The translations under genes were made by a program, and so were the position numbers. From contig CAYYTC010000006.1 in the NCBI GenBank assembly GCA_964474425.1, positions 20,503-84,502 of the forward strand: DNA of 64,000 nt, in the 5' to 3' direction. This DNA is from an uncultured Acidobacteriota bacterium (GTDB taxonomy: Bacteria > Acidobacteriota > UBA6911). Numbering within the stretch: the stretch's first letter is position 1; every line of letters begins with the position of its first letter. The notes beneath the pieces are model-generated. The model searched no databases, was not told the DNA's origin, and saw only the letters and a list, made by a program, of their open reading frames with translations. Below are positions 16,251-46,696 of this stretch, in pieces.

Positions 16251-17563
16251 TGTTCGGTTGGTGTGGACGATTGTTGCGGGTGAATCTGACGGACGGCGCC
16301 ATCGCCAGGGAATCCCTGGACCCTGAAGCCGCCAGAACCTTTCTTGGCGGGCGCGGGCTCGGGACCCGGCTGCATGCAAAAGAGGTCTCTTCCTCCTGCG
16401 AACCGCTGGGCGCCGCAAACCATCTGGTGTTTATCACCGGCCCTCTGACGGGCACCGTCGCGCCTAACGGCGGCCGCTACACGGTTGTCACCCGCGTGCC
16501 GCCCGAAGGCTCCATTGCCGCGGCCAGCATCAGCGGGAAATGGGGTTCGGAGCTCAAATTCGCCGGATTCGACGGGATCATCGTCGAGGGCAGAGCGGCT
16601 GAACCGTCCTATCTCTGGATTAAGGACGGCCATGCGGAATTGCGCTCCGCCGCGCGCGTTTGGGGCAAGCCGGTGAGGGAAACGACCGACCTGCTGGTCG
16701 CGGAAACGCACGAGAGATCGGTCGTTTCCTGTATCGGCCCCGCGGGCGAGAACGGCGTGAAAGGGTCGGTAATCGTCAGCGATTATTTTTCGGCTGCAGG
16801 CGGAGCGGGCGCGGGCCGGGTCATGGGCTCGAAGAATCTAAAGGCCATCGTCGTCTGCGGCACAATCGGGTTCCGTGCAGCCGATCACAGGCGGTTTCTC
16901 AAGCTGGCCACGGAATTCCGGACCTGGATGAAGACCAAACCGATTGCCGCAAGGGGCGTGCGTCTGCATGATTGCTTTCTCCGGGCGGACAGTGTCGCGT
17001 GGGATGCTGCGGCGCCCGAATCCAGGCCGGCCCGAACCAGGGGCTGCTTCGGTTGCGCAACTTCTTTTTCGTCTTTTACATTCGATGACAAAGTCAGGGC
17101 CCTGCCGCTGCTTGCGGGATCGCCGCCCGCCGAACTGGGCGAGAGGCTGAGGGAATACCGGCATTTTGCCGACCTGGGGCTGGATTTTGTCGCAGCCAAG
17201 ACCTCCCTGGCTTCTCTCGGCAAAGAGGCCGAAGCGGATCCGGCCGGGTTTGCCCGAAAGCTGGCCGCCGGCGAAATGGAAGGAACCGGAAGCATAAACG
17301 GCAATCGCGCGATGGACCGGGGAGCCTGTTTTGCTTCCGGTTACGCGGTTGCCCCGAATATCTCCCAGGGCAACGGACAGGACAGGGCGCTGAGCTGCCT
17401 GGTAAGCATTCTTGATTCCGCGGGATTGTGTCCGTTCCTTGCCGCCGGGATAGAAACAGGCACGATCGCCGGGCTGCTGAATGCGGCCACGGGAATCGAT
17501 TTTTCGCAGGAAGAAATCCTGCAGGCGGGGCAGCGCATCAGCCTGCCCGGCAACACCGACTGA
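16250..17563 (+). CDS. aldehyde:ferredoxin oxidoreductase (AOR) family protein, truncated (N-terminal AOR domain plus shortened C-terminal region)
   Basis: Start is TAATG-coupled to the preceding ferredoxin. N-domain MFGWCGRLLRVNLTDG...GGRGLG...LVFITGPLTG...KNLKAIVVCGT is typical AOR. C-terminus keeps CFGC and the DSAGLCPF (DSxGLCxF) cluster-ligand motif, but the protein is about 437 aa versus about 600 for canonical AORs. Confidence 0.65.
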   Translation: MFGWCGRLLRVNLTDGAIARESLDPEAARTFLGGRGLGTRLHAKEVSSSCEPLGAANHLVFITGPLTGTVAPNGGRYTVVTRVPPEGSIAAASISGKWGSELKFAGFDGIIVEGRAAEPSYLWIKDGHAELRSAARVWGKPVRETTDLLVAETHERSVVSCIGPAGENGVKGSVIVSDYFSAAGGAGAGRVMGSKNLKAIVVCGTIGFRAADHRRFLKLATEFRTWMKTKPIAARGVRLHDCFLRADSVAWDAAAPESRPARTRGCFGCATSFSSFTFDDKVRALPLLAGSPPAELGERLREYRHFADLGLDFVAAKTSLASLGKEAEADPAGFARKLAAGEMEGTGSINGNRAMDRGACFASGYAVAPNISQGNGQDRALSCLVSILDSAGLCPFLAAGIETGTIAGLLNAATGIDFSQEEILQAGQRISLPGNTD

Positions 17564-17628
17564 AGGCGTTGCCGAAGGGACTATGAAGAACACGTGCGCA
17601 ATGATACGCCGGTCGTTGATCTCCGCGC

Positions 17629-19038
17629 TTGGCATTCACAGGGGGTGAAGACTTGTTCCTGTTGCCTGTACTGTTAGCTGCGGCAGCAATGCTGGGTACC
17701 CTGGCCGTAGTGGTTCGCAGCTATGGCGCTGTCTGGTCCTTTGACCTGGGCACCGTGCCCTGGCTGGCCGGCCGGGAGGCCTTATTCGGCATCCGTATCG
17801 ACGGATTGAGTTCCCTGATGCTGCTGGCTATCACCGTAGTCGGCTTTCTGATCATCCTTTACTCCGGCGGATACGTGAGCGCCCGCAACCGCGAGCACCC
17901 GTCCAACGAAGGACAGGGACGGTACTATTTCTTCATGCTGCTCTTCGTTGCCGCGATGATCGGCCTGGTGATTTCGCCCAATTTCTTTCAGTTGTTCATT
18001 TTTTGGGAACTGACGACGCTCTGCTCCTGGGGTCTGATAGCCTTCTACCGCGACAGGGAAGCGCTGGGTTCCGCTTATAAGGCGCTGTTGATCACCCATG
18101 CCATGGGGCTCTTCCTCGAAGCTGGCATCATTCTCGTTTACGTCAACACCGGTTCATTCGCCTTTCCCGCCATCGAGCAGCTTTCCCCCGCGCTGAAGAC
18201 ACTGGCCGTGGTTTTCTTTGTGATCGCGGCGCTGGCGAAGGCCGCGCAGTTTCCGTTCTTCACGTGGCTTCCTACGGCCATGGCGGCCCCGACTCCGGCC
18301 AGCGCCTATCTTCATGCCGCGGCAATGGTCAAGGCCGGCATCTATCTGATAGCCCGGCTGCTGATCAGTATGAGCGTGTTCCCGCCCAAGGTCGGTGTTG
18401 TTCTCGGCGCCCTGGCGATGGTGACCATGCTGACCGCCGTGCTGCTCTACTTCGTTCAGGACGACTTGAAAAGGCTTCTTGCCTACTCCACCATTGCAAA
18501 TCTGGGCTACATGGTCCTGGGTCTTTCGCTCGGCAGCCTGGGATCCAGCCTGGCTTTGCGTGGCGGCCTGCTTCATCTCATCGGGCACTCATTCACCAAA
18601 AGCCTGCTTTTCCTGGCGGTCGGCGCGATATCGTTCGCGACCGGGACGCGCAGGATCTCAACGCTGAGCGGCCTCAACAAGAGAATGCCGCTGACTTCTT
18701 TGGCCTTCGTCCTCGGGGCTCTCGCCATCAGCGGCGTCCCTCCCTTCAACATGTTCTGGAGCAAGTTTTTCATAATTGCCGGCGCTTTTCAGCTGCATAC
18801 GGGTTGGGGGTGGACGCTCGGGCTGCTGGCACTGGTGGAAAGCGTCGCGGGATTTGCATGGTTTCTGCATGTCGTGCACAAGGTTGTTTTCGGCGCCCCG
18901 GCCCCGGCAGCCGAAGGAGCGCAGGATCCGCCCGCCGTTATGGCGATACCCTTGCTGGCGCTGATGGGCCTAATCCTGCTTTCGACCGTTTTCGCCTTGC
19001 CGATTATTGACCGGCTGGTCGGAGGATTGGGACGATGA
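17629..19038 (+). CDS. hydrogenase-4 antiporter-like membrane subunit (HyfD/NuoM/MnhD-like)
   Basis: 469 aa polytopic protein of the NuoL/M/N fold. Start codon uncertain. Confidence 0.8.
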   Translation: MAFTGGEDLFLLPVLLAAAAMLGTLAVVVRSYGAVWSFDLGTVPWLAGREALFGIRIDGLSSLMLLAITVVGFLIILYSGGYVSARNREHPSNEGQGRYYFFMLLFVAAMIGLVISPNFFQLFIFWELTTLCSWGLIAFYRDREALGSAYKALLITHAMGLFLEAGIILVYVNTGSFAFPAIEQLSPALKTLAVVFFVIAALAKAAQFPFFTWLPTAMAAPTPASAYLHAAAMVKAGIYLIARLLISMSVFPPKVGVVLGALAMVTMLTAVLLYFVQDDLKRLLAYSTIANLGYMVLGLSLGSLGSSLALRGGLLHLIGHSFTKSLLFLAVGAISFATGTRRISTLSGLNKRMPLTSLAFVLGALAISGVPPFNMFWSKFFIIAGAFQLHTGWGWTLGLLALVESVAGFAWFLHVVHKVVFGAPAPAAEGAQDPPAVMAIPLLALMGLILLSTVFALPIIDRLVGGLGR

Positions 19039-21062
19039 CCGCAATGCAAGTATTCGCCGGCTCCATGGCTGTTCTGGCCGCGACCTCCGTTCTTACGCTG
19101 CTGACGGCAGATCGCCGAAAAGTGGCCGGCGGGATTAATTTTGCCGGCACCGCCTGTGCGGCTCTGGGGATGCTGTGGCTCGCGGCCAGGGCGCTGTTTG
19201 CGGGCCCGCTGGAATTCGGGTATGGAAGCGTCCGTGTTCTGGGCCTGAGCGCACAGCTGGATTTTCGCATTGACGGCCTGAGCGCCCTTTTTCTCTCGAT
19301 TATCGCAATCCTTGTCACGGGCTCCGCTCTCTACAGCATCGGCTATCTCGATCACTACCGCCACGAAGGGCTGCGAAGGTACTATTTCCCCTTTCCGTTG
19401 TTCATGGCCGGCATGCTGGCGGTGGTGACCGCTGCCGACTGGTTCTGGTTCCTGGTTTTCTGGGAGGTCATGACGCTGACGTCCTATTTCCTGGTGGTCT
19501 TCGAAAACGACAACAAGGAAAACCTTTCGGCCGGATTCCTATATTTTTTCATGACGCATCTCACGTCGGCCGGGCTGATGGTCGCGGTGATGTTCCTGGC
19601 GAACAGGTCCGGCTCATTTGCCTTTGCGGCGCTTCCGGACCTGTTTAACAACCTTGCCTACACGAACCCGGCCGGCCTTCACCTCCTCCTGCTCCTCTTC
19701 TTCATCGCATTCGGGACCAAGGCGGGGATGTATCCCCTCGGTGTCTGGCTGCCCGCCGCGCATCCCGCGGCTCCGGCCAGCGTCAGCGCACTGCTCTCGG
19801 GCGTCATGATCAAAATCGGGGTCTACGGAATGCTGCGGGTCTTCGTCTGGATGCTCCCGGTAGTTTCGGCGGCCGTCCTCTGGGGAACCGTTATCGCCAC
19901 CTTCGGGATTATTTCCATGGCGGTCGGGACACTGCGCGCGCTGGGTGAACACGACTGCAAAAGGCTGCTGGCCCAGAGCAGCATCGGCCAGATGGGATAC
20001 ATCCTGCTCGGTCTGGGGCTCGGCATGGTTTTCATGTCCCGCAGCCCGGTTTTCGGCGTGATCGCGCTGATCGGCTGCCTCTACCACATTGTCAATCATG
20101 CCTGCTTCAAATCCCTGCTCTTTTTCAATACCGGTTCACTGTTGTTCCGGACAGGCACGCGGAACCTGGATAAGATGGGCGGCATGATACAGCTGATGCC
20201 GGTGGCCGGGGCATGCGCCATCGTTGGAGCGCTTTCCATCGCCGGAGTCCCCCCTTTCAACGGCTTCGTCAGCAAATGGCTTCTCTACCAGAGCGCCATC
20301 TTTGGGAAGCCTGCATCCGTTTTCATCGTGTACGCCGTCATCGCAATTTTCATGAGCACGGTTACCCTGGCCTATTTCATCAAGTACCTGGGCACCGCCT
20401 ATCTCGGCACGATGCCGGAACGTTTTGCCGGCAGCCCCCACGGATCTCCCCGGTCGATGGAAATCGTGCAGCTCGTGCTCGCGGCCGGATGCCTGATGCT
20501 TGGGATCTACCCGGCGACCGTGGTTCTGGTCCTGCTGGGAGTCCTGGAACCTGCCCTGAGCATAGCCAATTCCCGTCTGGCCCAGGGGGCGCTCGGCGCT
20601 TTGCCGTGGCTCGGGATGAAGCTGGACCTGAATTCTGTAAGCACGGCCGCTGCGGGCCCCGCCATCATACTGGCGGCGCTCGCCGCCTGTGCAGGTATTG
20701 CGTATCTGATATATCGCAGCGTCCAGGTGGAGAGCCGGCCCGCATCCATCTGGAATTGCGGGGAAGTTGTTTCCGACGAAGCGGTGCGCTATCGCGCCAG
20801 CAGTTTTTACAAGCCGTTCCGGAACCTGATCAGCCCTGTGTACCGGAAAATCCGGTGGCCCCGGATTTCTCCGCCTCAATCCTTCGCGCGCAGCCTGGAC
20901 CTGGACCGCTGGTTGTACTTTCCAATAGGTTCTGCCTTTGTCCGCATCGGCAGGGCTTTCAGCAGGATTCATAACGGCGTGCCTCAGTTCTACCTCCTAT
21001 GGCAGGTGGTGGGGCTCGTCCTTTCCGTTATGTTTGTTTTCTGGTTGATGGGAGGAAAATAA
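19035..21062 (+). CDS. hydrogenase-4/formate hydrogenlyase antiporter-like membrane subunit (HyfB/HycC, NuoL-like)
   Basis: 675 aa, about 16 TM, conserved WLPxAHxAPxPVSALL motif. ATGA overlap with the upstream gene. Confidence 0.85.
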   Translation: MTAMQVFAGSMAVLAATSVLTLLTADRRKVAGGINFAGTACAALGMLWLAARALFAGPLEFGYGSVRVLGLSAQLDFRIDGLSALFLSIIAILVTGSALYSIGYLDHYRHEGLRRYYFPFPLFMAGMLAVVTAADWFWFLVFWEVMTLTSYFLVVFENDNKENLSAGFLYFFMTHLTSAGLMVAVMFLANRSGSFAFAALPDLFNNLAYTNPAGLHLLLLLFFIAFGTKAGMYPLGVWLPAAHPAAPASVSALLSGVMIKIGVYGMLRVFVWMLPVVSAAVLWGTVIATFGIISMAVGTLRALGEHDCKRLLAQSSIGQMGYILLGLGLGMVFMSRSPVFGVIALIGCLYHIVNHACFKSLLFFNTGSLLFRTGTRNLDKMGGMIQLMPVAGACAIVGALSIAGVPPFNGFVSKWLLYQSAIFGKPASVFIVYAVIAIFMSTVTLAYFIKYLGTAYLGTMPERFAGSPHGSPRSMEIVQLVLAAGCLMLGIYPATVVLVLLGVLEPALSIANSRLAQGALGALPWLGMKLDLNSVSTAAAGPAIILAALAACAGIAYLIYRSVQVESRPASIWNCGEVVSDEAVRYRASSFYKPFRNLISPVYRKIRWPRISPPQSFARSLDLDRWLYFPIGSAFVRIGRAFSRIHNGVPQFYLLWQVVGLVLSVMFVFWLMGGK

Positions 21063-22760
21063 ATGACGACTTCGGCGGATCTGATTGCAGCGGTACAGGA
21101 ACGGTTTCCCGGAGCCCTGGTATCCAGCGAGCAGCCGAGCCGGGACCGGCTGTTTTTGACGGTAACACGGGAAAGCATGCCGCGGGTTGCGGACTACCTG
21201 TTCAATTCTGCGGGGGCAAGACTCATCCTGTCCTCGGGGACGGACAAGAGTCCGATCAACGGGACTTACGAGGTGACCTACATTTTCTGCCTGGATCAGG
21301 ACAATCTGATCCTCGCCGTCAAGGAAATCGTGGACCCCGCCGACCCGCGCATACCATCGCTGACCAACATCATTCCGGGGGCGGACTGGCACGAGCGCGA
21401 GATGTACGACATGATGGGCATCGTTCCCCAGGGGCATCCGGATCCGCGGCGCCTGGTGGTTTCCGACGACTGGCCTGAAGATGTCTACCCGCTGCGCAAG
21501 GAGGTTCCGTACAACTTCAAGCCGCCGCGCGTTGCGGAAGTCAAGCCGCCGATGCGTGAGCCCAGGGAGGGTGAGAAGCAGGCTACGATCCTGAATGTCG
21601 GTCCTTTTTTCCCGACGCTGGAAGAGCCGGCCTATTTCCGCCTGTACGTGGAGGGGGAGAAGATTGTCGGCAGCGATTATAGGGGCTTTTTCGCCCACCG
21701 CGGCATTGAAAAGCTGACCGAAACCGTGATGGACTACAACCAGGTGCCCTTTATCGCGGAGCGCATCTGCGGAATCTGCGGTTTTGTTCACAGCGCCACT
21801 TACTGCATGGCGGTGGAGCAGGCGGCCGGGATTGAAACCCCGCCGCGCGCAAAGTATATCCGCTCCATCATGCTGGAGCTGGAGCGCGTGCACAGCCATC
21901 TGCTATGGCTGGGCCTGGCCGCGCACTATCTCGGCTTCGATACCGTTCTGATGCAGGCCTGGAGAATCCGCGAACCGATCATGTGGCTGACCGAGGAAAT
22001 TACCGGCAACCGCAAAACCTTCGGAATGAACCTGCCGGGCGGAGTGCGCCGCGATATTGATGCCGCCACGGCGGAAAAAATACTCAAGACGCTCGAAAAG
22101 GTGGACTCGGAGACCCGGGAGTTGATCGAAGCCGCGGTCGAGGACAACTCGCTGAAAATGCGCCTGGAACATGTGGGCGTTCTCAGCAAGGAGGATGCCC
22201 GCAAGGTTTGCGTGGTGGGGCCCACCGCCCGGGCTTCCGGCGTGGCGATCGATGTCCGGAAGGACCGCCCCTATCTGGCCTATCCCGACCTGGATTTCAA
22301 AGTCGCGGTTCAGGAAGGCTGCGACATATGGGCCCGGACGCTGGTGCGCGCCGAAGAGGTCTTCAGCGCAATTTCCCTGATGCGGCAGATGATCGAAAAG
22401 ATGCCCTCCGGGGAAATCATGGCTGATGTCGGTCCGATTGCGCCGTGGCGCGAGGGTATCGCGACCGTTGAAGCCCCGCGCGGCGAGTGTTGCCACTACG
22501 TGATAACGGGGCCGGACAACCGGCCGTACCGCTGGCGCGTCCGCGCCTCGACCTATCCCCAGCTCCAGTCCATTCCCAGGATGCTGGACAACATGAGCGT
22601 GGCCGATTTCCCCATCATCGTGGGCAGCATCGATCCCTGCTTTTCCTGCACGGAGAGGGTTATCACGGTGGATGCAAGAAGCCGGAAGATCCGGACCTAT
22701 TCCGGGGAAGAGCTTTTGGCCTTGAGCCGAAGAAACAGCGGACAAGGGAGACGTTCGTGA
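21063..22760 (+). CDS. group-4 [NiFe]-hydrogenase large subunit (HycE/HyfG type, NuoC-NuoD fusion)
   Basis: N-terminal Ni-Fe ligand motif RICGICGFVHS and C-terminal DPCFSCTERV. 565 aa with a NuoC-like N-terminal segment. Confidence 0.9.
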   Translation: MTTSADLIAAVQERFPGALVSSEQPSRDRLFLTVTRESMPRVADYLFNSAGARLILSSGTDKSPINGTYEVTYIFCLDQDNLILAVKEIVDPADPRIPSLTNIIPGADWHEREMYDMMGIVPQGHPDPRRLVVSDDWPEDVYPLRKEVPYNFKPPRVAEVKPPMREPREGEKQATILNVGPFFPTLEEPAYFRLYVEGEKIVGSDYRGFFAHRGIEKLTETVMDYNQVPFIAERICGICGFVHSATYCMAVEQAAGIETPPRAKYIRSIMLELERVHSHLLWLGLAAHYLGFDTVLMQAWRIREPIMWLTEEITGNRKTFGMNLPGGVRRDIDAATAEKILKTLEKVDSETRELIEAAVEDNSLKMRLEHVGVLSKEDARKVCVVGPTARASGVAIDVRKDRPYLAYPDLDFKVAVQEGCDIWARTLVRAEEVFSAISLMRQMIEKMPSGEIMADVGPIAPWREGIATVEAPRGECCHYVITGPDNRPYRWRVRASTYPQLQSIPRMLDNMSVADFPIIVGSIDPCFSCTERVITVDARSRKIRTYSGEELLALSRRNSGQGRRS

Positions 22761-28049: not shown

Positions 28050-28119
28050 AAGGAAGAAGCCGGGAGCCGGAATTTGAAAGCTGTTTTTTCCCGGCTTCTC
28101 AATCATTCACACGAAGAGG

Positions 28120-30264
28120 ATGGAAGTGATGTCGGAAAAAGTGCTGACCGTATGTCCCTATTGCGGCGCCGGGTGCATGCTCAACCTGCTGGTTGACAAC
28201 GGCACGATTGTGGGAGCTGAACCTGCGCCCGGACGGACCAATCAAAGCGAGCTCTGCCTGAAGGGCTACTATGGCTGGGATTTTCTCAACGATACCAACC
28301 GTCTCACGCCGCGATTGAAGAAGCCCCTGATCCGCCGCCGCCGGGACGGCAAATTCGAGGAAGCCTCGTGGTTTGAGGCCATCGATTTTGCGGCCGGCAA
28401 GCTGCAGGAGATCAAGCACAAATACGGGCCGGATGCGATCATGCTCACCGGATCTGCCCGTGGACCGGGGAACGAAGCCAACTACGTCATGCAGAAGTTC
28501 GCCCGCGCGGTGATCGGCACAAACAATATCGATCACTGCGCCCGCGTCTGACATGCCCCTTCCGTGGCCGGGCTGGCCGCGACGCTGGGTAACGGGGCGA
28601 TGAGCAACTCCATCCCTGAAATCGAGGACACGCGGTGTGTCTTTATCTTCGGATATAACGCCGCCGATTCTCATCCGATTGTGGCGCGCCGCATCGTCAA
28701 TGCGAAACAGAAGGGCGCCAAGATCGTTGTGGTCGACCCGCGCATGACGGAGTCGGCGCGGATCGCTGACCTGTGGCTGCCGATACGCAACGGTACCAAC
28801 ATGGTCCTGGTGAATGCGTTCGGATATGTGCTGATCGAGGAAGGTCTGTATAACAGGGACTATGTCGCCAGCTATACCCAGGGCTTTGAGCAGTACAAGG
28901 CCATTGTTTCCAAATACACTCCCGAGTACGCGGAACAGGTTACGGGGATCCCCGCCAAAGATATACGCGAGGCGATGAGGATTTACGCGGCGGCTCCGAG
29001 CGCCTTCATCCTGTACGGCATGGGCGTGACGCACTATGGACAGGCGGTCGATGTCGTCAAGGGCCTGTCCGGCCTGGCGCTGCTTACGGGCAACTTCGGC
29101 CGGCCCAATGTCGGGATCGGCCCCGTGCGCGGCCAGAACAACGTCCAGGGAGCCTGCGATCACGGCGCGCTTCCCAACGTTTTCCCCGGATACCAGCCTG
29201 TTACGGACGAAGCCATACGCGCCAAGTTCGAAAAAGCCTGGGGCGTCTCCAGGCTGCCGGACAAGGTGGGTTGCACGCTGACGGATGTCCCCCACCTGGT
29301 TAAGGAAGGCAAGCTGAGGGCCTACTACATTTTCGGCGAGGACCTGGTTCAGACCGATCCCGATTCCGCTTCCCTCAGGGAAACCCTGAAGAGCATGGAG
29401 TTTGTTATTGTGCAGGATATCTTCATGAACAAGACCGCCCTGCATGCCGACGTGATTTTCCCCGCGACATCGTGGGGGGAGCACGAAGGGACCTATTCCA
29501 CGGCCGACCGGGGCTTCCAGCGCTTCCGCAAAGCCCTGGAGCCCAAGGGGGATGTGAAGACGGACTGGGAGATTATCTCCATGATGGCTACGGCCATGGG
29601 CTATCCCATGAAATACAGCAACACCGAGGAGATCTGGAACGAAATGCGTTCCCTGTGCCCGTCTTTTGCGGGTGTTACCTACGAAAGACTCGATAAGCTG
29701 GGCACCCTGCAATGGCCGTGCCCCAGCGAGGATCATCCCGGCACTCCCTATCTTTACGCGGGCAACAAATTCAATACGCCCGACGGCAAAGGACTGCTTT
29801 TTGCCGCGGAGTGGCGGCCGCCGCTCGAGCAGCCCGATAAGGACTACCCTCTGGTTTTATCGACCGTCCGCGAGGTCGGGCATTATTCCGCGCGCACCAT
29901 GACCGGCAACTGCGCCGCTCTGCAGGTCCTGGCGGATGAGCCGGGATATCTGCAGATCAGCGGCAAGGACGCCGAACGCCTGGGAATCCGGGACCAGGAA
30001 CTGGTCTGGATTTCGTCGCGCCGCGGCAAAGTGATCAGCCGGGCTCAGGTGACCGATCGCGTCAATATTGGCGCGGTATACATGACGTATCAGTGGTGGG
30101 TGGGCGCCTGCAACGAGCTGACCATTCATCACGTGGATCCGATATCCAAAACCCCGGAATACAAGTATTGCGCCGTGGCGGTGGAAAAGATAGACGACCA
30201 GGAGCAGGCCGAACGCTACGTTCAGGAGGAATACAGTCGTTTCAAAACCGCCATGAACATATAG
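28120..30264 (+). CDS. fdhF: formate dehydrogenase H (FdhF-type, molybdopterin), selenocysteine-containing; UGA at 28549-28551 is read as Sec
   Basis: N-terminal CPYCGAGC [4Fe-4S] motif. The two supplied ORFs (28120..28551 and 28564..30264) are in the same frame and separated only by TGA. Context NIDHCARV-U-HAPSVAGL matches the E. coli FdhF Sec140 region (...HCARV-U-HGPSVAGL...). Confidence 0.9.
28563..28581 (+). promoter_or_regulatory. candidate bacterial SECIS hairpin 11 nt downstream of the fdhF UGA
   Basis: CGUGGCC-GGGCU-GGCCGCG (7-bp stem including one G-U, 5-nt loop), placed as in known bacterial SECIS elements. Confidence 0.5.
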
Positions 30265-38416: not shown

Positions 38417-39586
38417 TCATGAGCATTTCCGGAACGCGCGCGCGAAGCTCGGGAGCGAACGCACTATGGTTTCCCGAGGCACCGTCAGTGAGAGGCGGAT
38501 GTAAGGGCCGCGTCCAAAGCCTGTGCCGGGCACAGCGAGTACACCCTCTTCCTGAAGTATCCGCAAGAACGCCACATCATCCGGGATAGGTGTCTTCGGA
38601 AAGACATAGAAAGCCCCCTGGGGCTTGCAGACTTCGTATCCGATCTCGGCCAGCCCGTTGCACATCAGGTCCCGCTTCTCCTGGTAGGCAGCCACATCCG
38701 GAAGCTCTTCCGGCGCCTCGGCCGTGACCATCTGCCAGACCGCAGGAGCGTTGATAAATCCGAGGATGCGGTTGGCGAAAGTGCAGGCGTTGGCCAGATC
38801 TTCCGCTCCGGGCAGCCTGGGCGAGATGGCCAGGTACCCGATGCGCTCACCGGCCAATGCCCAGGTTTTGGACCATGAAGTGGCGATGATGCAATTGCTG
38901 ATGATCGATGCCGTTTCCGGGCACTTCACGCCATCGTAAACGATGGCTTTATAGGGCTCGTCGCTGATCACCGCGATGGTGTGATCCGCCTTCTGCAGCA
39001 CGGCCTCGAGGTCCCTTAACGATGCTTCAGAATATAGGACGCCGGTAGGGTTGTTCGGCGAGTTGATGATGATTGCCCGTGTGCGTGAGGTGATTTTCGA
39101 CTCAATGGCCGGCACATCCAGCGAAAAATCCTTGCAGGTTTCCACCGGCACGGTGCGTCCGCCGTGATTGAGGATGTAAAAATTGTAGTCGGGGAAGTAC
39201 GGATTGCATACGATGACCTCGTCTCCCGGGTCGAGAATGGCCTTCAACGCTGTATTCATGGCGCCCGCACAACCGACCGTCATGAGAACCAGGTCTTCGT
39301 TGAAGGGTACTCCCGTATCCCGCCGCAGGCGCTGGGCAACAGCCCGGCGCACGGCAGGGAATCCGGCGTTGGGCATATAGCCGTGTGCCGTGGGACGGTT
39401 TTCGCCCGCCAGCCGGCGAAAAGTTTTCAGCACGCCGGACGGCGGGTCTTCACTCGGATTCCCGAGCGTAAAATCGAATATGTTTTCCGCTCCCCGTTCT
39501 GCTTTCAATTGAATGCCTTCCTCAAACATCCTGCGGATCCATGAGGAGTTCTCCAGCTGCTTTTTAATCACATCCGCGACAATCAT
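38417..39586 (-). CDS. PLP-dependent aminotransferase, class I/II (AspAT-like)
   Basis: 389 aa. SWSKTWALAGERIGY contains the class-I PLP-lysine context. Confidence 0.8.
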   Translation of the reverse strand: MIVADVIKKQLENSSWIRRMFEEGIQLKAERGAENIFDFTLGNPSEDPPSGVLKTFRRLAGENRPTAHGYMPNAGFPAVRRAVAQRLRRDTGVPFNEDLVLMTVGCAGAMNTALKAILDPGDEVIVCNPYFPDYNFYILNHGGRTVPVETCKDFSLDVPAIESKITSRTRAIIINSPNNPTGVLYSEASLRDLEAVLQKADHTIAVISDEPYKAIVYDGVKCPETASIISNCIIATSWSKTWALAGERIGYLAISPRLPGAEDLANACTFANRILGFINAPAVWQMVTAEAPEELPDVAAYQEKRDLMCNGLAEIGYEVCKPQGAFYVFPKTPIPDDVAFLRILQEEGVLAVPGTGFGRGPYIRLSLTVPRETIVRSLPSFARAFRKCS

Positions 39587-39766: not shown

Positions 39767-41044
39767 TCAGGGAATGTATTCGGGGAAAAAGGAGCGGACG
39801 ACCATGGTCAGCGTCAACACGATGATCACGATGCAGGTAGTCCAGGCAATGGCATTGAACGCCCGGCTGTTGCGGTGCGCACCCATGAGATCTTCCCGGT
39901 TGCACAGCCTCAGCATAAATATCAAAACGAAGGGCAGCAGGACGCCGTTGGCGACCTGGGTGAACAGGATTATGGGAACCTGTTTCCTCTCGCTGAGAAC
40001 CAGTACGGCGAGGCCGCCCAGGATGATCAGCCCCGTGTAGAGCGAATAAAACACGGGAGCTTCGTGGGGCCGTTTATCAATGCCGGATTCAAAACCCAGG
40101 CCTTCGCAGACGGTGTAGGCCGTTGCAAGCGGCAGGATGCTGGCTGCGAACAATGAGGCATTGCACAGTCCCAGCGCGAAGAGGGCACTGGCGGCTCTCC
40201 CGGCGAGAGGCTCCAGCGCGAGGGCGGCGTCGGCCGCGCCGTTAATCTGCTGATGGCCTCCCATAAAAATCGTGGCCGCGCAGGCCACAATAATGAAGTA
40301 GGCGACCACGCTGACCAGGATGCAGCCGATAATGACATCCAGCCGTGACTGCCTGTAATTCTCAACCTTGATGCCCTTCTCGACGACGGCTGCCTGCAGG
40401 TAAAACTGCATCCAGGGGGCAATGGTAGTCCCTACCAGGCCGAGGATCATATAGAGCTCGCCGGTGCTGAGGCTCATCCGGGGGACAACCGTTCCCAATA
40501 GGGCCGACTCCCAATCCGGATCGGCCAAAAAGCCCGAAATCACATAGGCGACATAGAATACGCATGCCGCAAGGAACACCCTTTCCACGGTTTTGTGGCT
40601 TCCCCGGAAAACCAGAAGCCAGACCAGAACCGCTCCCAGGGGGACGGACAGGAATCTGCTGACATGAAAAATGGACATTCCCGATGCCAGGCCGGCGAAT
40701 TCCGATACGGTATTGCCCCAGTTGGTCAGCAGCAGCAGGGCCATAAGAATAAAGGTCATGCGGAAGCCATATTCCTCCCGAATGAGATCTGCCAGCCCCT
40801 TGCCGGTGACAACGCCCATGCGCGCCGCCATTTCCTGGACGATTATGAGAGCTGCCGTTATGGGGATCAGGGTCCATAGAAGGGCATAACCATAGCGGGC
40901 GCCGGCTGCCGAATAGGTGTAGATGCCCCCGGCATCGTTGTCCACATTGGCGGTGATGATGCCCGGACCGACTACGCTCAGAAAGATAAGCAGGCTGGTC
41001 TTCCAGCGCCGGAGTCTTGCGAGATTCATTGGCAGCGTGAGCAT
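39767..41044 (-). CDS. SLC11/NRAMP-family transporter with non-canonical metal site (NRMT-like, putative Mg2+ transporter)
   Basis: TM1 reads DAGG where canonical NRAMP has DPGN. TM6 reads TTIAPW where canonical has AxxMPH. Gap-free alignment to the MntH TM1 block. Confidence 0.8.
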   Translation of the reverse strand: MLTLPMNLARLRRWKTSLLIFLSVVGPGIITANVDNDAGGIYTYSAAGARYGYALLWTLIPITAALIIVQEMAARMGVVTGKGLADLIREEYGFRMTFILMALLLLTNWGNTVSEFAGLASGMSIFHVSRFLSVPLGAVLVWLLVFRGSHKTVERVFLAACVFYVAYVISGFLADPDWESALLGTVVPRMSLSTGELYMILGLVGTTIAPWMQFYLQAAVVEKGIKVENYRQSRLDVIIGCILVSVVAYFIIVACAATIFMGGHQQINGAADAALALEPLAGRAASALFALGLCNASLFAASILPLATAYTVCEGLGFESGIDKRPHEAPVFYSLYTGLIILGGLAVLVLSERKQVPIILFTQVANGVLLPFVLIFMLRLCNREDLMGAHRNSRAFNAIAWTTCIVIIVLTLTMVVRSFFPEYIP

Positions 41045-41050
41045 GATCCG

Positions 41051-42325
41051 TCACTTTTCCTTAACGACCAGTTCCAGAACGTCGTCGGCTGTTACCACTC
41101 CCAGAAGCCGGCCGTTATCGTCGACCACCGGCAGAGTAAGAAGGTTGTATTTATGAAAAGTGCTGATGACGGTTTTTTTGTCCGCATGGAAGGGTACCGA
41201 AATCGGCGGGTCCGCGACCAGATCGCAAAGCCGGGAATTCTTGCCCGCAAGGAGCAGGAGCGCCAGGGGCACCGTCCGTGTCAGTTCCAGGTTTTCCGAT
41301 ATCAAATAGACGGAATGAACAGTCTCGACCGGTCCGTTGAAATTCCTTAGGGCTTCGACGGCCGCTTCCACGGTCGCCGTTTCCGCCAGCACTATGAATT
41401 CCGTTGTCATGAAGCCGCCGGCCGTGTTTTCCTCGAACCCGAGCAGTTCGCGCACTTCTTCGGCTTCAGCTTCCTCCATGTTCGCAAGAACCTCCGCTGA
41501 GGTTTCCGGCGGGAGTTCCTGCAGCACATCGGCCGCCTCATCCGGAGCCATCTCCTCGACAATGTCGGCAGCCTTTCCGGCAGAGAGGCTGTTCAATAGC
41601 GCCACCTGCATGCGCGTCGGAATTTCGGAAACGGCTTCGGCTGCCGTTTCGTCATCCAGCGACTCGATAACGGACCTTTGCTCGTCGCGGCTCAATTCCT
41701 CGAGAATATCGGCCAGGTCCGCCGGATGAAGCTGGGCCAGCCGGTTGTAGGAAATCCTTAGCTTGACGCGCCTTGCCGGGTCCGGCTCGATCAGGTTGAC
41801 AAATTCCCAGGGGATGGTCTGCGTGGACAGAACGGAGACTATCGTGCGGATCCGGTGTTTTGCGAACAGGCCTTGTAACAGGCGGCGGGCTGCGGCCGAC
41901 GTCCCGACGTTCACTGCGACGATGCGCAACTCCGTTTGTTTGTGGTCGGGCTGAATGTCAAAATCCACGTCGATGACACGGACCACTTTCCGGTCATTGA
42001 CGTCGATAATCTGCTGATCCAGGACGTCTTTTTTGATGCAGATCAATCCTTCGTCGGGAGTGGAGCTGCCGATTTCGTTCGCCGGGACACTGGTCTGCAC
42101 GGCGCGCACCGAAATCGTGGAAATCCATCCATGCTCGATGCACAGAAGCTTCTTCTGAGGCGTCATGACATAGAAATAGGCCACCAGAAAGGAATTCTGG
42201 CTCGGGTTGATCGCCAGTTCCACCAGGCGTCCGAGATATTCACCCTTTGCGTCATAAGTCGGCAGATTTTCGAGTTCGGTGAAGTAGATCATAGGAGCCT
42301 CGCTGACTGAGGATTCAGAAATCAT
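41051..42325 (-). CDS. soluble PRC-barrel / MgtE-N-domain / CBS-pair protein (MgtE cytoplasmic regulatory module without transmembrane pore)
   Basis: Acidic helical MgtE_N repeats (LHPADLADILEELSRDEQ..., ADIVEEMAPDEAADVLQELPPETSAEVLANMEEAEAEEVRELLGFEENTAGGFMTTEF) followed by two CBS motifs. The ORF-track N-terminal extension to 43000 overlaps cbiM and is rejected; start taken at MISESSVS. 6-nt gap to the NRAMP-like gene. Confidence 0.75.
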   Translation of the reverse strand: MISESSVSEAPMIYFTELENLPTYDAKGEYLGRLVELAINPSQNSFLVAYFYVMTPQKKLLCIEHGWISTISVRAVQTSVPANEIGSSTPDEGLICIKKDVLDQQIIDVNDRKVVRVIDVDFDIQPDHKQTELRIVAVNVGTSAAARRLLQGLFAKHRIRTIVSVLSTQTIPWEFVNLIEPDPARRVKLRISYNRLAQLHPADLADILEELSRDEQRSVIESLDDETAAEAVSEIPTRMQVALLNSLSAGKAADIVEEMAPDEAADVLQELPPETSAEVLANMEEAEAEEVRELLGFEENTAGGFMTTEFIVLAETATVEAAVEALRNFNGPVETVHSVYLISENLELTRTVPLALLLLAGKNSRLCDLVADPPISVPFHADKKTVISTFHKYNLLTLPVVDDNGRLLGVVTADDVLELVVKEK

Positions 42326-42470
42326 AGTACACCAAGTTCCTGGAAGATGAGGGACGTAAACACTGCCGGATGGCGCCAATGGCGCGGGCCGCCTGTCCCG
42401 CCTGCGGCCGCCTGTCGCAGATCGGGTTCTTTGTCGCTGTTTTTCAGCGCCGGCTTGGTCTAGAATCTCG

Positions 42471-43388
42471 ATGATGCATATGCCAGATGGATTTTTGTCC
42501 AACCCGATGGCAATTTCCCTGAACGTGGTATCTGCGGCAAACGTATGGTATGCGGCCCGGCGCACGAAGATTGATCTTTCGGGACGCATGGTCCCCATGA
42601 TGGGGATGCTCGCGGCATTCGTTTTCGCGGCCCAGATGCTCAATTTCCCCGTGCTCGGCGGCACCTCGGGCCACCTGATAGGGGGCAGCCTCCTGGCCAT
42701 CCTGCTTGGGCCGATGGCAGGATCCCTGGCCATGACGACGGTGATTGTTGCCCAGGCGTTGTTCCTCCAGGACGGAGGCCTGGTCGCCCTCGGGGCCAAT
42801 ATATTCAACATCGGTGTCGTTACCAGCATGAGCGGGTATGCCATATTCCGGCTCCTCGGAGGGGATGTGCGCGGCGGCAGACGCCTGTTCCTGGCCGGAT
42901 TTCTTGCCGGATGGTCCTCTTTGGTCATTTCGGCTGCTTTTTGCGCGCTTGAACTGGGCCTATCGGGCGCCATCCCCTTGCGCATCGCCCTGATGACCAT
43001 GGTTGGGTATCATGCCGCCGTGGGGATTCTGGAGGGCATGCTGACGGCGGGAGTCCTGAATTTCCTGCATAGGGTGAGGCCGGATCTCATGGCCATCGAC
43101 GGCCTGAGCAAATTCAGGATGCCGGATTGGATCGGGGCTGTTCTGTTTGTAGCGATTCCCGGCGCGATCCTGGTCATGGCCGGCAGTTCCAGTCTCCCGG
43201 ACCCTCTTGAAAAGCTGCTGGAAGCAAGCCCGCTGAAGGCCGAATCCGGGGCCGACATCAGTCCGGAAGGGCTTGTGTCCACAGGGCGCCTTGCCGAGTA
43301 CCTGTTGCGAACCGCGATCTTCCTTGTGTTGATCGGTCTCGGATTGCTCGCGATGCGCATGGCGAAGCGAAGGAGAGGCCGGTCATGA
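42471..43388 (+). CDS. ECF transporter substrate-capture component CbiM/NikM fused to an N-like C-terminal two-TM segment (Co2+/Ni2+)
   Basis: N-terminal MHMPDGFLSNP (essential His2). 305 aa with extra C-terminal TM pair. Confidence 0.8.
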   Translation: MMHMPDGFLSNPMAISLNVVSAANVWYAARRTKIDLSGRMVPMMGMLAAFVFAAQMLNFPVLGGTSGHLIGGSLLAILLGPMAGSLAMTTVIVAQALFLQDGGLVALGANIFNIGVVTSMSGYAIFRLLGGDVRGGRRLFLAGFLAGWSSLVISAAFCALELGLSGAIPLRIALMTMVGYHAAVGILEGMLTAGVLNFLHRVRPDLMAIDGLSKFRMPDWIGAVLFVAIPGAILVMAGSSSLPDPLEKLLEASPLKAESGADISPEGLVSTGRLAEYLLRTAIFLVLIGLGLLAMRMAKRRRGRS

Positions 43389-44095
43389 GACACAGCTTCA
43401 TAGACCGCTATGCTTCGCTGGATTCGCCCCTGCATGTTCTGGAAGCCCGCTCCAAGCTTATCGCTTTTACCGCCCTGATGGTGGGCGTTCTATGCATCCC
43501 GGCGGAACGGGGATCGATGTTCTTCATCTATTTTTTTGCCACGGCGATCCTGATGGGCATCTCGCAGATCCCGCTGACCTACATCGTGGGGCGGACTTTT
43601 CTGATCCTGCCGTTCATAGTGCTGGCCGGTCTGGCGGCGCCCTGGAAGGGGGGGTATTGGGGTTTGGGCATCCTTTTTATCCGCGCCGTTCTGTGCCTGT
43701 TCCTGCTGGTTCTCCTGACCAACACCACACGCTTTGTCGAGCTGCTGCGCGGCATGCGGAGGCTGGGATGTCCCCAAATCCTGGTTATGAACCTTGGTTT
43801 CCTCTACCGGTATCTTTTTGTCCTCACGGAGGAGGCGATGAGAATGAAGCAGGCGCGCGACTGCCGCCGCGTCGGACGGGCCGGGTTCGGGGAAGAAATA
43901 AAAATACTGAGTTCGATGCTTGGAACTCTTCTGATACGCTCTTTCGAGCGGGCGGAACGTATGCATTCGGCCATGCTTTCCCGCGCCTATGCAGGCGATT
44001 TTCCCGTCGTGTCGCCGCGGAAATTTACGCTGCGCGATGCCGCATTTCTTTCGGGCGTGGTAATTTTTATCACTTTGTCGTTTTGGATAGGATGA
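43385..44095 (+). CDS. ECF transporter transmembrane T component (CbiQ/NikQ)
   Basis: ATGA overlap with the M component. 236 aa, 5-6 TM. Confidence 0.8.
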   Translation: MRHSFIDRYASLDSPLHVLEARSKLIAFTALMVGVLCIPAERGSMFFIYFFATAILMGISQIPLTYIVGRTFLILPFIVLAGLAAPWKGGYWGLGILFIRAVLCLFLLVLLTNTTRFVELLRGMRRLGCPQILVMNLGFLYRYLFVLTEEAMRMKQARDCRRVGRAGFGEEIKILSSMLGTLLIRSFERAERMHSAMLSRAYAGDFPVVSPRKFTLRDAAFLSGVVIFITLSFWIG

Positions 44096-44149
44096 AACCC
44101 GGCGGGCAGCAAAAACGCCTGGATCGGACGCCCGCCGAACAGGACTGAC

Positions 44150-44893
44150 ATGACCGGCTATGCGGTTCGGATAACCCGGCTGAACTACACATACCCCGAT
44201 GGCACAAAGGCGCTGGAGGGGATCGATCTCGATGTGCGGTCGGGAGAGCGGGTGGCAATCGTGGGCCCGAGCGGGGCCGGAAAATCCACTCTGCTCCTTC
44301 ACCTGAACGGCATCCTGCCGGCCAGCGCGGCCGTGCGGATCAAGGGCCAAAGCCTGGATACGGCCGATTTAAAGCGAATCCGCAAGCAGGTCGGGTTGCT
44401 CTTTCAGGATCCCAATGACCAGCTTTTTTGTCCGACCGTATTCGAGGATGTGGCTTTCGGCCCGTTGAATCTTGGAGTGCCTGCGGACGAAATTCCCCGC
44501 CGGGTGGAGAAGGCGCTGCTGGACTCGGGGTTGGAGTATGCCATCCGGTCCCGTTCGTCGCATCATCTGAGCCTGGGCGAAAGAAGGCGGGTTTCTCTGG
44601 CAGCCGTTCTTGTGATGGAGCCGGAAATCCTGGGAATGGACGAACCGACGAGCAACCTCGATCCGAGGAACCGCCGCCATTTGATTGAAGTGGTCGCCGG
44701 GCTCGAGGCAACCCTGATCATCGCCACGCACGACCTGGAGCTTGTTCTGGACGTGTGTCCGCGAACGGTCCTGATGGATCGCGGCAGGATCTGGGCGGAC
44801 GGCGAGACGCGCGCCATGCTGGCCGATGCCCGGCTGATGGATCTCCACGGTCTGGAAGTGCCGTTGAGCCTGAGGTCCGGGACCCGGCCATAA
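44150..44893 (+). CDS. ECF transporter ATPase A component (CbiO/NikO)
   Basis: Walker A GPSGAGKST, signature LSLGERRRV, Walker B LVMDEPTSNLD. Confidence 0.9.
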   Translation: MTGYAVRITRLNYTYPDGTKALEGIDLDVRSGERVAIVGPSGAGKSTLLLHLNGILPASAAVRIKGQSLDTADLKRIRKQVGLLFQDPNDQLFCPTVFEDVAFGPLNLGVPADEIPRRVEKALLDSGLEYAIRSRSSHHLSLGERRRVSLAAVLVMEPEILGMDEPTSNLDPRNRRHLIEVVAGLEATLIIATHDLELVLDVCPRTVLMDRGRIWADGETRAMLADARLMDLHGLEVPLSLRSGTRP

Positions 44894-45032: not shown

Positions 45033-45668
45033 ATGCCGTTCATGATTCCGGCCGGACCGCTGCAGCTGGAGGCGCATCTGCGGGAGCCCCGGGAAACGCT
45101 CCGGGGGGCCGCGCTATTCTGCCATCCGCACCCGGTCTACGGCGGCACGATGGATAACCGGGTTGTTTACCGCGCGGCCAAGTCTGCGGCCGCAGCCGGC
45201 TTTGCGGCTTTGCGTTTCAACTTCCGCGGCGCAGGCAACAGCACAGGTTCCTTTGACCAGGGGATCGGTGAGAAAGATGATGTCCTGGCGGCGCTGGATT
45301 GGCTGGAGGGAAAATACCCCGGGCGTTTTCTGGCGCTCGGGGGATACTCCTTCGGCGCCTGGGTAGGTCTTCAGATCGGGTGCGGGGACCGGCGCGTCCG
45401 GGCGCTGCTGGGCCTGGGATTGCCCCTGAATCTTTACAGCATGGATTTCCTGGCCGATTGTTCCAAGCCGGCGCTTTACATCGTCGGAAGCCGGGATGAA
45501 TTCTGCTCCCCGGAAAACCTGGACCGGTTGTCGCAACGGCTTCCCGCGACTTCAAGGGTGCACCGTATAGCCGGCGCCGATCATTTTTTTAATGGACACA
45601 TAGAATTCGTCGAAAGACTAATGGCCGGATTTTTCGAGGGAATGCATACCGGTCAGGGTGCGGCATGA
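45033..45668 (+). CDS. alpha/beta hydrolase-fold protein
   Basis: GGYSFGAW nucleophile-elbow motif. An alternative upstream start at 44982 is possible. Confidence 0.65.
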   Translation: MPFMIPAGPLQLEAHLREPRETLRGAALFCHPHPVYGGTMDNRVVYRAAKSAAAAGFAALRFNFRGAGNSTGSFDQGIGEKDDVLAALDWLEGKYPGRFLALGGYSFGAWVGLQIGCGDRRVRALLGLGLPLNLYSMDFLADCSKPALYIVGSRDEFCSPENLDRLSQRLPATSRVHRIAGADHFFNGHIEFVERLMAGFFEGMHTGQGAA

Positions 45669-46696
45669 GAAAAGTTTTATTGACGGCGGCTCTCGTTTTG
45701 GCATCGGCTCAAGGCCCGGGATCCTCATTTGCCGCGGCGCGCTTTGAAAAGGTGAGCGATCACTGCTATTGCCTTCAGTCGGCTGAGAGCGGAGGGAACG
45801 TCGGAGCCGTCGCAACGGAAGAAGGCGTCTTAATGATTGATCCCCCTCCGGAACCGGCTCTGTCCGCTGCGGTGGAGGCCCTGAAAAAGCTGACCTCGAA
45901 AGCCGTACGGTGGGTAGTCTTCACCGATCCGGCCCGTATCAGAACTGAGAATGCCCGTTATTATGCCGGCCAGGGGGCTGTCCTTGTAGCAAGCTCACAG
46001 ATGTACAGCCTTTATGCATCCGCCAATGGCGATCCGAATGCTCCGGGAACCGAAGCCCGCGCAGGAGGTCCGGCCAAGCCCCCGGACTCATCCTGGTTCA
46101 TTTTCGACCGGCAGATGCGCCTGTTTCCCGCAAATCTGGAGGTGCGCATTGTCGCCTTGCAGTCGAAATCCCGGACCGGCGGGGATGTTTTTGTATTTGT
46201 CCCCGCGGAAAAAGTTCTGTTTGTGGGGGGACTCTACGAATACGCGAGATATCCGGATATCGATGAGGCGCTGGGGGGAAGTGCCGATGGCTGGATTGAG
46301 GGATTGAGCCAGGTAGTCGATACGGTGCCGCTTTTGAAAGCCGCAATCCCCGCAGCAAAGCCTTTGCCCAAATCCGCGCCGAAGCCGGCGGCGAAGCCTG
46401 AGACAAAGCCGTCCCCAAAGGCTGCCGCAAAACAGGAAGAGCTCGAAGACGAAGAGGAGAAGACCCTGGAAGAGGGAATCGCCATCATCTCCGCCTCGGG
46501 CAGCGCCTCCAATCTTCGGGAAATGAAGGAAATGCTGCAAACCTCGCGAAGGCTCCGGAATGATATTTCAAGGGCTGCCAGGACAGGAGGGGGCTGTGAG
46601 AATTTCCTCGCTTCCTCCCGGTCCGGCGCATACCGGAATTTTGCCAATTTGGATGCCTTTGCCTGCCGTCTCTTCGAAGCCCTTCAGCGGAAGTAA
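45665..46696 (+). CDS. secreted protein with a degenerate metallo-beta-lactamase-like N-domain, a Pro/Ala/Lys-rich linker and a C-terminal domain
   Basis: Signal peptide. MBL-like blocks (GVLMIDPP..., GGDVFVFVPAEKVLFVGGLY) but no HxHxDH motif. Linker PAAKPLPKSAPKPAAKPETKPSPKAAAK. Confidence 0.45.
   Translation: MRKVLLTAALVLASAQGPGSSFAAARFEKVSDHCYCLQSAESGGNVGAVATEEGVLMIDPPPEPALSAAVEALKKLTSKAVRWVVFTDPARIRTENARYYAGQGAVLVASSQMYSLYASANGDPNAPGTEARAGGPAKPPDSSWFIFDRQMRLFPANLEVRIVALQSKSRTGGDVFVFVPAEKVLFVGGLYEYARYPDIDEALGGSADGWIEGLSQVVDTVPLLKAAIPAAKPLPKSAPKPAAKPETKPSPKAAAKQEELEDEEEKTLEEGIAIISASGSASNLREMKEMLQTSRRLRNDISRAARTGGGCENFLASSRSGAYRNFANLDAFACRLFEALQRK

Follow-up and report, generated by a model that had tools for sequence, protein, structure and literature searches.

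Is a soluble relative of the cytoplasmic part of MgtE, encoded next to a transporter of the SLC11 family, a regulator of that transporter, and is Mg2+ the cation it carries? The question is raised by a locus in a 64,000-nucleotide stretch of DNA from an uncultured Acidobacteriota bacterium (hereafter the window), in which two minus-strand open reading frames (ORFs), taken from the ORF list of the window, fill the interval 39767-42325. One is nrmT, encoding a transporter of the NRAMP-related Mg2+ transporter (NRMT) type; the other, directly upstream, encodes a soluble protein that we call the partner. We find that the two genes form an operon of the published mgtE(N)-nrmT type on the chromosome of an uncultured soil member of the Terriglobia (Acidobacteriota), and we think it probable that the NRMT imports Mg2+, and also Mn2+, while the partner acts as a cytoplasmic divalent-cation sensor that restrains it.

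Operons of this kind are known as mgtE-nramp operons. Most NrmT genes adjoin a gene for a homologue of the MgtE N-terminal cytoplasmic domain, for which cytoplasmic feedback regulation or chaperone activity has been speculated (Shin et al., 2014, PMC4072509). The initial annotation of this DNA, made from its letters alone, had presented the arrangement as a new regulatory pairing; both the pairing and the same feedback idea are already in that paper. The NRMT clade, its metal-site signature and the association with a free-standing MgtE module are likewise published, and what is added here are small points: the tandem-PRC architecture of the partner and the conservation of its second repeat, the metal-site residues that are retained or lost together, the absence of conservation at the ATP site, and M-box control within Terriglobia.

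The transporter is an SLC11 protein of the NRMT clade

Searched against all PDB sequences, the transporter finds EleNRMT of Eggerthella lenta as its best match (7QIA; E 1.5e-106, 360 bits), and the canonical NRAMPs in the PDB score 110 bits or less each (about 110 for DraNramp). It matches Pfam Nramp with 344.8 bits, but reaches 154.4 bits with the NCBIfam MntH model (NF001923) against a cut-off of 430, and 64.6 bits with TIGR01197 against a cut-off of 272.5. Identity is 45.9% to EleNRMT (over 399 aligned columns), compared with 23.8% to E. coli MntH and 28.9% to DraNramp. The family is large, with 932 clusters at 50% identity matching the transporter at E <= 1e-30, and its best genome match is to a Terriglobia (Acidobacteriota) metagenome-assembled genome, at 73% identity.

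The metal-binding site was read from an alignment of E. coli MntH (locus L001; L numbers denote the loci compared here), DraNramp, EleNRMT and 56 cluster representatives. In transmembrane helix 1 (TM1), D37-A-G-G40 aligns to the D-P-G-N of E. coli MntH and DraNramp, and in TM6 T206-T-I-A209-P-W211 aligns to the canonical A-T-[IV]-M-P-H. All five signature positions thus differ from canonical NRAMPs, the substitutions including N to G, A to T, M to A and H to W, and the DAGG and TTIAPW motifs of EleNRMT are identical to those found here. Ramanadane et al. (2022, PMC8806188) defined NRMTs by two motifs, DxxG and TxxA/T, which lie in the unwound centres of TM1 and TM6, respectively. The transporter carries both motifs and has no Met ligand, in agreement with the NRMT-type motifs that the initial annotation had described. 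Furthermore, in a neighbour-joining tree of 84 sequences (the window protein, 80 genome homologues and 3 references: EleNRMT, E. coli MntH and DraNramp), the transporter falls inside the clade containing EleNRMT, separated by a long branch from E. coli MntH and DraNramp. A phylogeny had been proposed as a check, and this tree places the protein with EleNRMT rather than inside canonical MntH. By homology, motifs and tree, we assign the transporter to the NRMT clade.

The partner resembles the MgtE cytoplasmic module without its pore

Pfam identifies PRC (32.6 bits, cut-off 21.2), MgtE_N (96.7 bits) and CBS (55.3 bits) domains in the partner. The TIGR00400 model for MgtE matches, below its cut-off, over profile positions 25-254 of 450 only, which is the cytoplasmic part, and among PDB sequences residues 184-410 of the partner align to residues 24-253 of Thermus thermophilus MgtE (TtMgtE) with E 7e-29. 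Its sequence stops with the end of the CBS pair, at the point where a plug helix would start, and has neither a plug helix nor a transmembrane domain. An AlphaFold2 (AF2) model drawing on 33 close homologues predicts the half with MgtE_N and CBS confidently, with block-mean predicted local distance difference test (pLDDT) values of about 80-96 over most of the CBS part, and the top Foldseek matches of the model, which cover the C-terminal half only, are MgtE cytoplasmic domains. Domain matches, the TIGR00400 match range, the PDB alignment and Foldseek therefore bear out the proposal of a soluble, pore-less MgtE cytoplasmic module.

The N-terminal part is more elaborate than had been supposed. 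A PRC-barrel is indeed present, as annotated, and is found with the N-terminal fragment alone (25.3 bits against the cut-off of 21.2); PRC matches occur in 10/10 such fragments, from the window and nine other partners of diverse phyla, 9/10 of them at or above the cut-off. The first 180 residues, however, hold two PRC-like repeats rather than one, which hhalign relates to each other with a probability of 79% (E 1.6e-5) and which together make up 44% of the 413-residue protein. Conservation across the family is highest in repeat 2, with its motifs LDQQIIDV, KVVRVxD and IPWEFV, and the invariant columns cluster there.

In MgtE, metal sites have been defined as Mg4 (D91, D247), Mg6 (D95) and Mg7 (E59) (PMC5882242). 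In the MgtE_N domain of the partner, E219, D251 and D255 correspond to E59 (Mg7), D91 (Mg4) and D95 (Mg6) of TtMgtE; in the CBS pair, D404 corresponds to D247 (Mg4), N383 to D226 and E407 to D250 (Mg5). By alignment, the inter-domain acidic residues of Mg4, Mg6 and Mg7 are therefore retained. Mapped on 45 partners from genome loci, the equivalent of D95 is D in 44, that of E59 is E or D in 34, and the Mg4 pair of D91 and D247 is kept in 32, lost at both positions in 11 and split in 2. Mg5 is degenerate, N replacing D226 in 37 of the same 45. The retained residues suggest that the partner may be a sensor that binds Mg2+ and changes conformation.

ATP sensing, which the initial annotation had also attributed to this module, is not supported. 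The side chains that bind ATP in TtMgtE are Y170, R187, D188, N203 and F227 (PMC5529423). The window partner has S, A, L, A and L at these positions, and the F227 equivalent is L in 39/45 partners; on the evidence of these unconserved contacts we reject TtMgtE-like ATP sensing by the partner.

The Mg4 pair is lost together in a set of Acidobacteriaceae (L012, L021, L022, L031, L032, L039, L043, L047 and L052) and in Smithella (L079 and L081). Five of the six partners in the alignment that are separated from the transporter by 1-4 kb of unrelated genes are among these losers, a pattern that phylogeny confounds.

Partner and transporter genes are linked in both directions

Linkage was assessed from both sides. 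For the forward scan, one genome per species was searched with a 13-sequence NRMT alignment, and 74 of the 80 best loci had assessable upstream DNA. A partner lies within 6 kb at 50/74 of these loci and directly upstream, within 1 kb, at 39/74: it is upstream on the same strand within 60 nt of the NRMT gene at 21 loci, at 61-1000 nt at 18 and at more than 1 kb at 9, and it is downstream on the opposite strand at 2. At the other 24 loci no partner lies within 6 kb, and a profile search found no divergent, hidden one among the ORFs of their first 2.5 kb of upstream DNA. These upstream ORFs are heterogeneous, and the unpaired loci are interspersed among the paired ones in the neighbour-joining tree, forming no separate paralogue clade. 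Where Acidobacteriaceae have genes between the distant partner and the transporter, these encode a glycosyltransferase-like protein, a GMC oxidoreductase and an aldo-keto reductase, none of them metal-related.

The reverse scan, in which metagenomes were searched with the partner alignment, gave 69 assessable loci. NRMT is downstream on the same strand at 63/69 (91%), within 1 kb at 60/69, and beside the 6 orphan partners we found no other Mg2+ transporter family, their neighbours being unrelated and heterogeneous. For a family of one or a few copies per genome, we reason that this two-way linkage is far above chance. The co-occurrence analysis suggested at the outset thus comes out in favour of a genomic link between proteins consisting of MgtE_N and CBS domains and SLC11 genes.

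Some of these loci carry a gene for an OprB-family outer-membrane porin (Pfam 126.7 bits). In L086 it lies between an M-box riboswitch and the partner gene (L086:3600-4988), in L085 directly upstream of the partner (L085:89-1486), and in L049 a more distant copy stands beside the NRMT gene. OprB together with the partner-NRMT pair could form a Mg2+-regulated route across both membranes.

Sister operons are under M-box control

An M-box (Rfam RF00380, 115-137 bits) lies directly upstream of the partner gene at L002, L003, L005, L086 and L089. These loci belong to the window's own subclade, with NRMTs 68-73% identical to the window's (L002, L003 and L005) and partners 63-66% identical (L086 and L089). 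Further M-boxes are found at L040, L055 (Firmicutes) and L102. An Rfam scan of 34 related loci detected no yybP-ykoY element, the Mn2+ riboswitch.

The 178-nt leader of the window operon gave no M-box or other Rfam family in gathering-threshold and E-value scans, and a covariance model (R1) built from six M-boxes of relatives found none in the window. The leader folds no better than its shuffles (z = 0.04), contains no match to the sigma-70 consensus and has no detectable nucleotide similarity to the M-box leaders of the sister loci. L004 and L083, which have ample upstream DNA, lack an M-box as the window does. This distribution suggests that the riboswitch was lost or replaced in the window lineage, possibly when cbiMQO became the neighbour. 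The leader is shared with a divergent CbiM-CbiQ-CbiO set (window 42471-44893, plus strand; Pfam CbiM 207.9, CbiQ 101.2 and ABC_tran 97.2 bits), which by these matches is an energy-coupling-factor type Co2+/Ni2+ importer. No cobalamin or other riboswitch was found in the intergenic region between cbiM and the partner gene, and CbiM is near the operon in 0/12 of the closest loci checked.

The initial annotation had argued that the partner independently supports Mg2+ as the substrate. That argument is not supported by the Acidobacterium capsulatum pair ACP_2976/ACP_2977, whose genes are arranged in the same way. This pair gave full rescue of a Mn2+-uptake mutant, but rescue of a Mg2+-uptake mutant only at millimolar Mg2+ (PMC4072509). 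Presence of a partner alone does not prove a Mg2+ substrate, because this pair behaved mainly as a Mn2+ importer. The M-box on the sister operons is better support for a role in Mg2+ transport than the presence of the partner alone.

Two other RNA elements were seen beside partner genes. The Acido-Lenti-1 small RNA motif (Rfam RF01687) matches at L008:4191-4240 (38.8 bits), about 170 nt upstream of the partner gene, and at L083:245-290 (60.7 bits). In two Smithella genomes, the DNA immediately ahead of the partner gene matches the PyrR binding site just above the cut-off of 54 bits, at L079:4436-4538 (59.3 bits) and L081:4445-4549 (54.5 bits); both matches are on the minus strand, opposite to the partner gene, and probably belong to a divergent pyr gene.

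A model for the operon and its alternatives

A carrier that admits the most abundant divalent cation of the cell without coupling should, we reason, need a brake, such as MgtE and CorA have. In the model that we favour, the NRMT would be a LeuT-fold SLC11 carrier whose enlarged site of exclusively hard ligands (D37, G40, T206, A209) takes largely hydrated Mg2+, and also Mn2+; import would run down the membrane potential without H+ coupling, by analogy with EleNRMT. The partner would sense cytoplasmic Mg2+ and hold the transporter back at high internal levels of the ion. As in MgtE, a compact state would be locked by Mg2+ bound between the acidic residues of the N domain and those of the CBS pair (E219, D251, D255 and D404), and the conserved second PRC repeat would make the contact with the transporter.

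A more specific version, which we put forward tentatively and rate at somewhat less than even, is a detachable Mg2+-operated brake. The partner may dock through PRC repeat 2 on the cytoplasmic face of the uncoupled LeuT-fold carrier, the cis sensor of MgtE having been recruited in trans, and the Acidobacteriaceae subclade that lost the Mg4 pair may have retuned or lost this control. The docking role of repeat 2 is speculation, because the PRC region is modelled without confidence.

Several observations weigh against the model. Of the related NRMT genes, 24/74 are without a partner within 6 kb. In the partner itself, Mg2 and Mg3 (plug helix) are missing and D226 of Mg5 has become N, which leaves the sites that couple sensing to the pore in MgtE absent or degenerate; moreover, pLDDT is below 50 for residues 1-182, and neither the fold of the PRC region nor the domain arrangement can be read from the AF2 model. 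As to substrate, the window's own operon has no M-box, ACP_2977, which is acidobacterial and has no riboswitch, behaved mainly as a Mn2+ importer (PMC4072509), and EleNRMT has a dissociation constant of about 100 uM for Mn2+ and about 400 uM for Mg2+ (PMC8806188). As to regulation, Ca_c0685, Ca_c3329 and ACP_2977 all work in B. subtilis without a partner, and co-expression of ACP_2976 had no visible effect (PMC4072509).

The substrate observations lead to an alternative that we consider unlikely, though the best placed of those weighed here: the physiological substrate would be Mn2+ or another transition metal rather than Mg2+, and it is this metal that the partner would sense, a suggestion made by Shin et al. 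for the pair of A. capsulatum (PMC4072509). It fits the behaviour of ACP_2977, which is paired and riboswitch-less as in the window and gave full rescue for Mn2+ and rescue for Mg2+ only at mM Mg2+, as well as the roughly four-fold higher affinity of EleNRMT for Mn2+, the lack of an M-box in the window and the presence of CbiMQO, a transition-metal importer, as divergent neighbour. However, the operons of the closest sequenced relatives are under M-box Mg2+ riboswitches, no yybP-ykoY element turned up in the loci scanned, and EleNRMT, a transporter of Mg2+, has an identical binding site. With a Km of about 120 uM for Mn2+, far above usual environmental Mn2+, Mg2+ would presumably out-compete it.

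Just behind this stands a second unlikely explanation, in which the partner does not gate the transporter at all and is instead a cytoplasmic metal buffer or chaperone, or a sensor with some other target, the genes being adjacent through co-regulation only. PRC barrels are found in proteins of unrelated roles, which counts in its favour, as do the 24/74 NRMT loci and 6/69 partner loci that are unpaired. Transport without the partner and the lack of a visible effect of co-expression fit it as well, and a chaperone role was listed as an alternative by Shin et al. (PMC4072509). Yet 91% of the assessable partners are directly upstream of an NRMT gene, often with nearly touching or overlapping stop and start codons, as is typical of subunits made in a fixed ratio, no other neighbour is consistent, and the residues retained are those that drive the conformational switch of MgtE.

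The tight operon coupling would be compatible with an obligate complex in which the partner is no brake but a positive subunit, needed for full activity, stability or high-affinity transport in the native host. NRMTs are reported to be unstable in isolation, EleNRMT having required 11 stabilising mutations (PMC8806188), and ACP_2977 alone gave weak Mg2+ rescue. On the other hand, co-expression of ACP_2976 did not improve the rescue, EleNRMT and the clostridial proteins transport on their own, and one in three of the related NRMT genes lacks a partner nearby; we regard this explanation as very improbable. Lastly, a canonical Mn2+/Fe2+ MntH with drifted motifs, as the Pfam Nramp match and MntH as best-scoring NCBIfam model might suggest, is refuted by the MntH cut-offs (154 bits against 430), the PDB scores, 24-29% identity compared with 46% to EleNRMT, five differing signature positions and the long branch between the clades.

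The favoured model, an NRMT importing Mg2+ under restraint by the partner, bears on a role that has been under question since 2014. If true, a soluble MgtE-type brake would mean that one regulatory module is shared by two unrelated Mg2+ transport machineries. The comparative data offer E219, D251, D255 and D404 as four candidate metal-bridging residues and the conserved second PRC repeat as a candidate docking surface, and about 100 natural partner-NRMT gene pairs can be used for complex prediction from paired alignments.

Gene layout and genomic setting

The features of the locus are collected in Table 1. Exactly 6 nt (cggatc) separate the partner TGA (41051-41053) from the nrmT ATG at 41044, a Shine-Dalgarno-like stretch, AAGGAAAAG, lies within the last codons of the partner gene just before its stop, and there is no terminator-like site between the two genes. 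In relatives the gap between the pair is small, or stop and start codons overlap. The two genes are almost certainly co-transcribed. For the partner, 42292 is the more probable start of translation; an in-frame ATG at 42325 is the alternative and would give a protein 11 residues longer. We prefer 42292 because most of the 120 closest partner homologues share the start MIYFTELENL and the length of 413 residues and because GAGG stands 5 nt ahead of the ATG at 42292.

Table 1. Features of the partner-nrmT locus in the window and M-boxes of sister loci
Feature	Position	Strand	Evidence
nrmT, NRMT-clade SLC11 transporter, 425 aa	39767..41044	-	Pfam, NCBIfam, PDB search, neighbour-joining tree
TM6 metal-site motif T206-T-I-A209-P-W211	40412..40429	-	alignment columns and translation check
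TM1 metal-site motif D37-A-G-G40	40925..40936	-	alignment columns and translation check
Spacer between partner stop and nrmT ATG, 6 nt	41045..41050	-	sequence read
Partner gene, 413-aa soluble protein, PRC-PRC-MgtE_N-CBS pair	41051..42292	-	Pfam, NCBIfam, PDB, Foldseek
CBS pair, aa 290-413	41054..41425	-	Pfam, residue mapping, AF2
MgtE_N domain, aa 188-289	41426..41731	-	Pfam MgtE_N (96.7 bits) and residue mapping
PRC-like repeat 2 and linker, aa 85-178	41759..42040	-	hhalign, invariant columns
PRC-barrel repeat 1, aa 1-75	42068..42292	-	Pfam PF05239
Leader, divergent intergenic region shared with cbiM, 178 nt	42293..42470	-	Rfam, M-box model, fold test
Sister M-boxes	L002:4418-4591, L003:4352-4529, L005:4334-4510, L086:3323-3496, L089:255-432		compared with window 42293-42470

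The wider setting is ordinary chromosomal DNA, with genes for DnaB, IF-2, a glycogen branching enzyme, an RND pump and a hydrogenase-like membrane complex. On the 3' side of nrmT, after a gap of 180 nt, lies a gene for a class I/II aminotransferase (window 38417-39586). The closest metagenome relative, L082, whose partner is 85% and whose NRMT is 82% identical to those of the window, has the same aminotransferase 3' of nrmT (L082:2888-4048), 75% identical to the window's, and the gene may belong to the transcription unit of the partner-nrmT operon. Elsewhere in the window, the plus-strand cluster at 16022-22760 holds genes for two Mrp/NuoL-like antiporter-type subunits and for a fused Complex1_30kDa/49kDa protein whose N-terminus is of the NiFe-hydrogenase large-subunit kind; its products resemble a group 4 membrane-bound hydrogenase or some related complex. 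Two ORFs without a Pfam match, of 545 residues at 28099-29736 (minus strand) and of 343 residues at 45665-46696 (plus strand), are putative.

Comparison with known systems

The locus is an ordinary further example of the known mgtE(N)-nrmT system and not a new kind of system. In later literature we found nothing relevant on the function of the partner, or on PRC-barrels together with MgtE. As in the operons of Shin et al., the partner is directly upstream of the transporter on the same strand, with the same proposed feedback role (PMC4072509). The partner described there is a "small protein", and two N-terminal PRC repeats are unmentioned, whereas the window partner has 413 residues and both repeats. 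Like ACP_2976/ACP_2977, the window pair is acidobacterial and has no M-box; this likeness is by description, the sequences of ACP_2976, ACP_2977 and CabNRMT standing outside the tree and the residue tables. The clostridial operons (Ca_c0685 and Ca_c3329 of C. acetobutylicum), unlike that of the window, carry an M-box, and the Ca_c0685 partner is split in two genes (PMC4072509). Only part of the family has the M-box, which is thus no obligatory element of such operons.

In the partner, as in TtMgtE (2YVY, 2YVX and 5X9G), an N domain is joined to a CBS pair and the acidic residues of Mg4, Mg6 and Mg7 are present. The partner differs in having no plug helix and no five-helix pore (PF01769), which makes Mg1-Mg3 impossible, in its degenerate Mg5 and unconserved ATP contacts, and in about 180 extra N-terminal residues that hold the two PRC-like repeats. 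The transporter shares with canonical MntH/NRAMP proteins (E. coli MntH, DraNramp, ScaDMT and EcoDMT) the Pfam family and, by homology, a LeuT-type fold, but the canonical DPGN and AxxMPH are replaced by DAGG and TxxAPW and identity is 24-29%; NRMTs, moreover, reportedly do not couple transport to H+ (PMC8806188). Its closest structural reference is EleNRMT (PDB 7QIA, 7QIC, 7QJI and 7QJJ), with which it shares full-length homology and the same motifs. According to Ramanadane et al. (2022, PMC8806188), who do not discuss a partner gene in E. lenta, EleNRMT carries Mg2+ and Mn2+ but not Ca2+, and its transport is not coupled to H+; the window transporter comes from a different phylum, and by analogy it would transport Mg2+ and Mn2+ as well.

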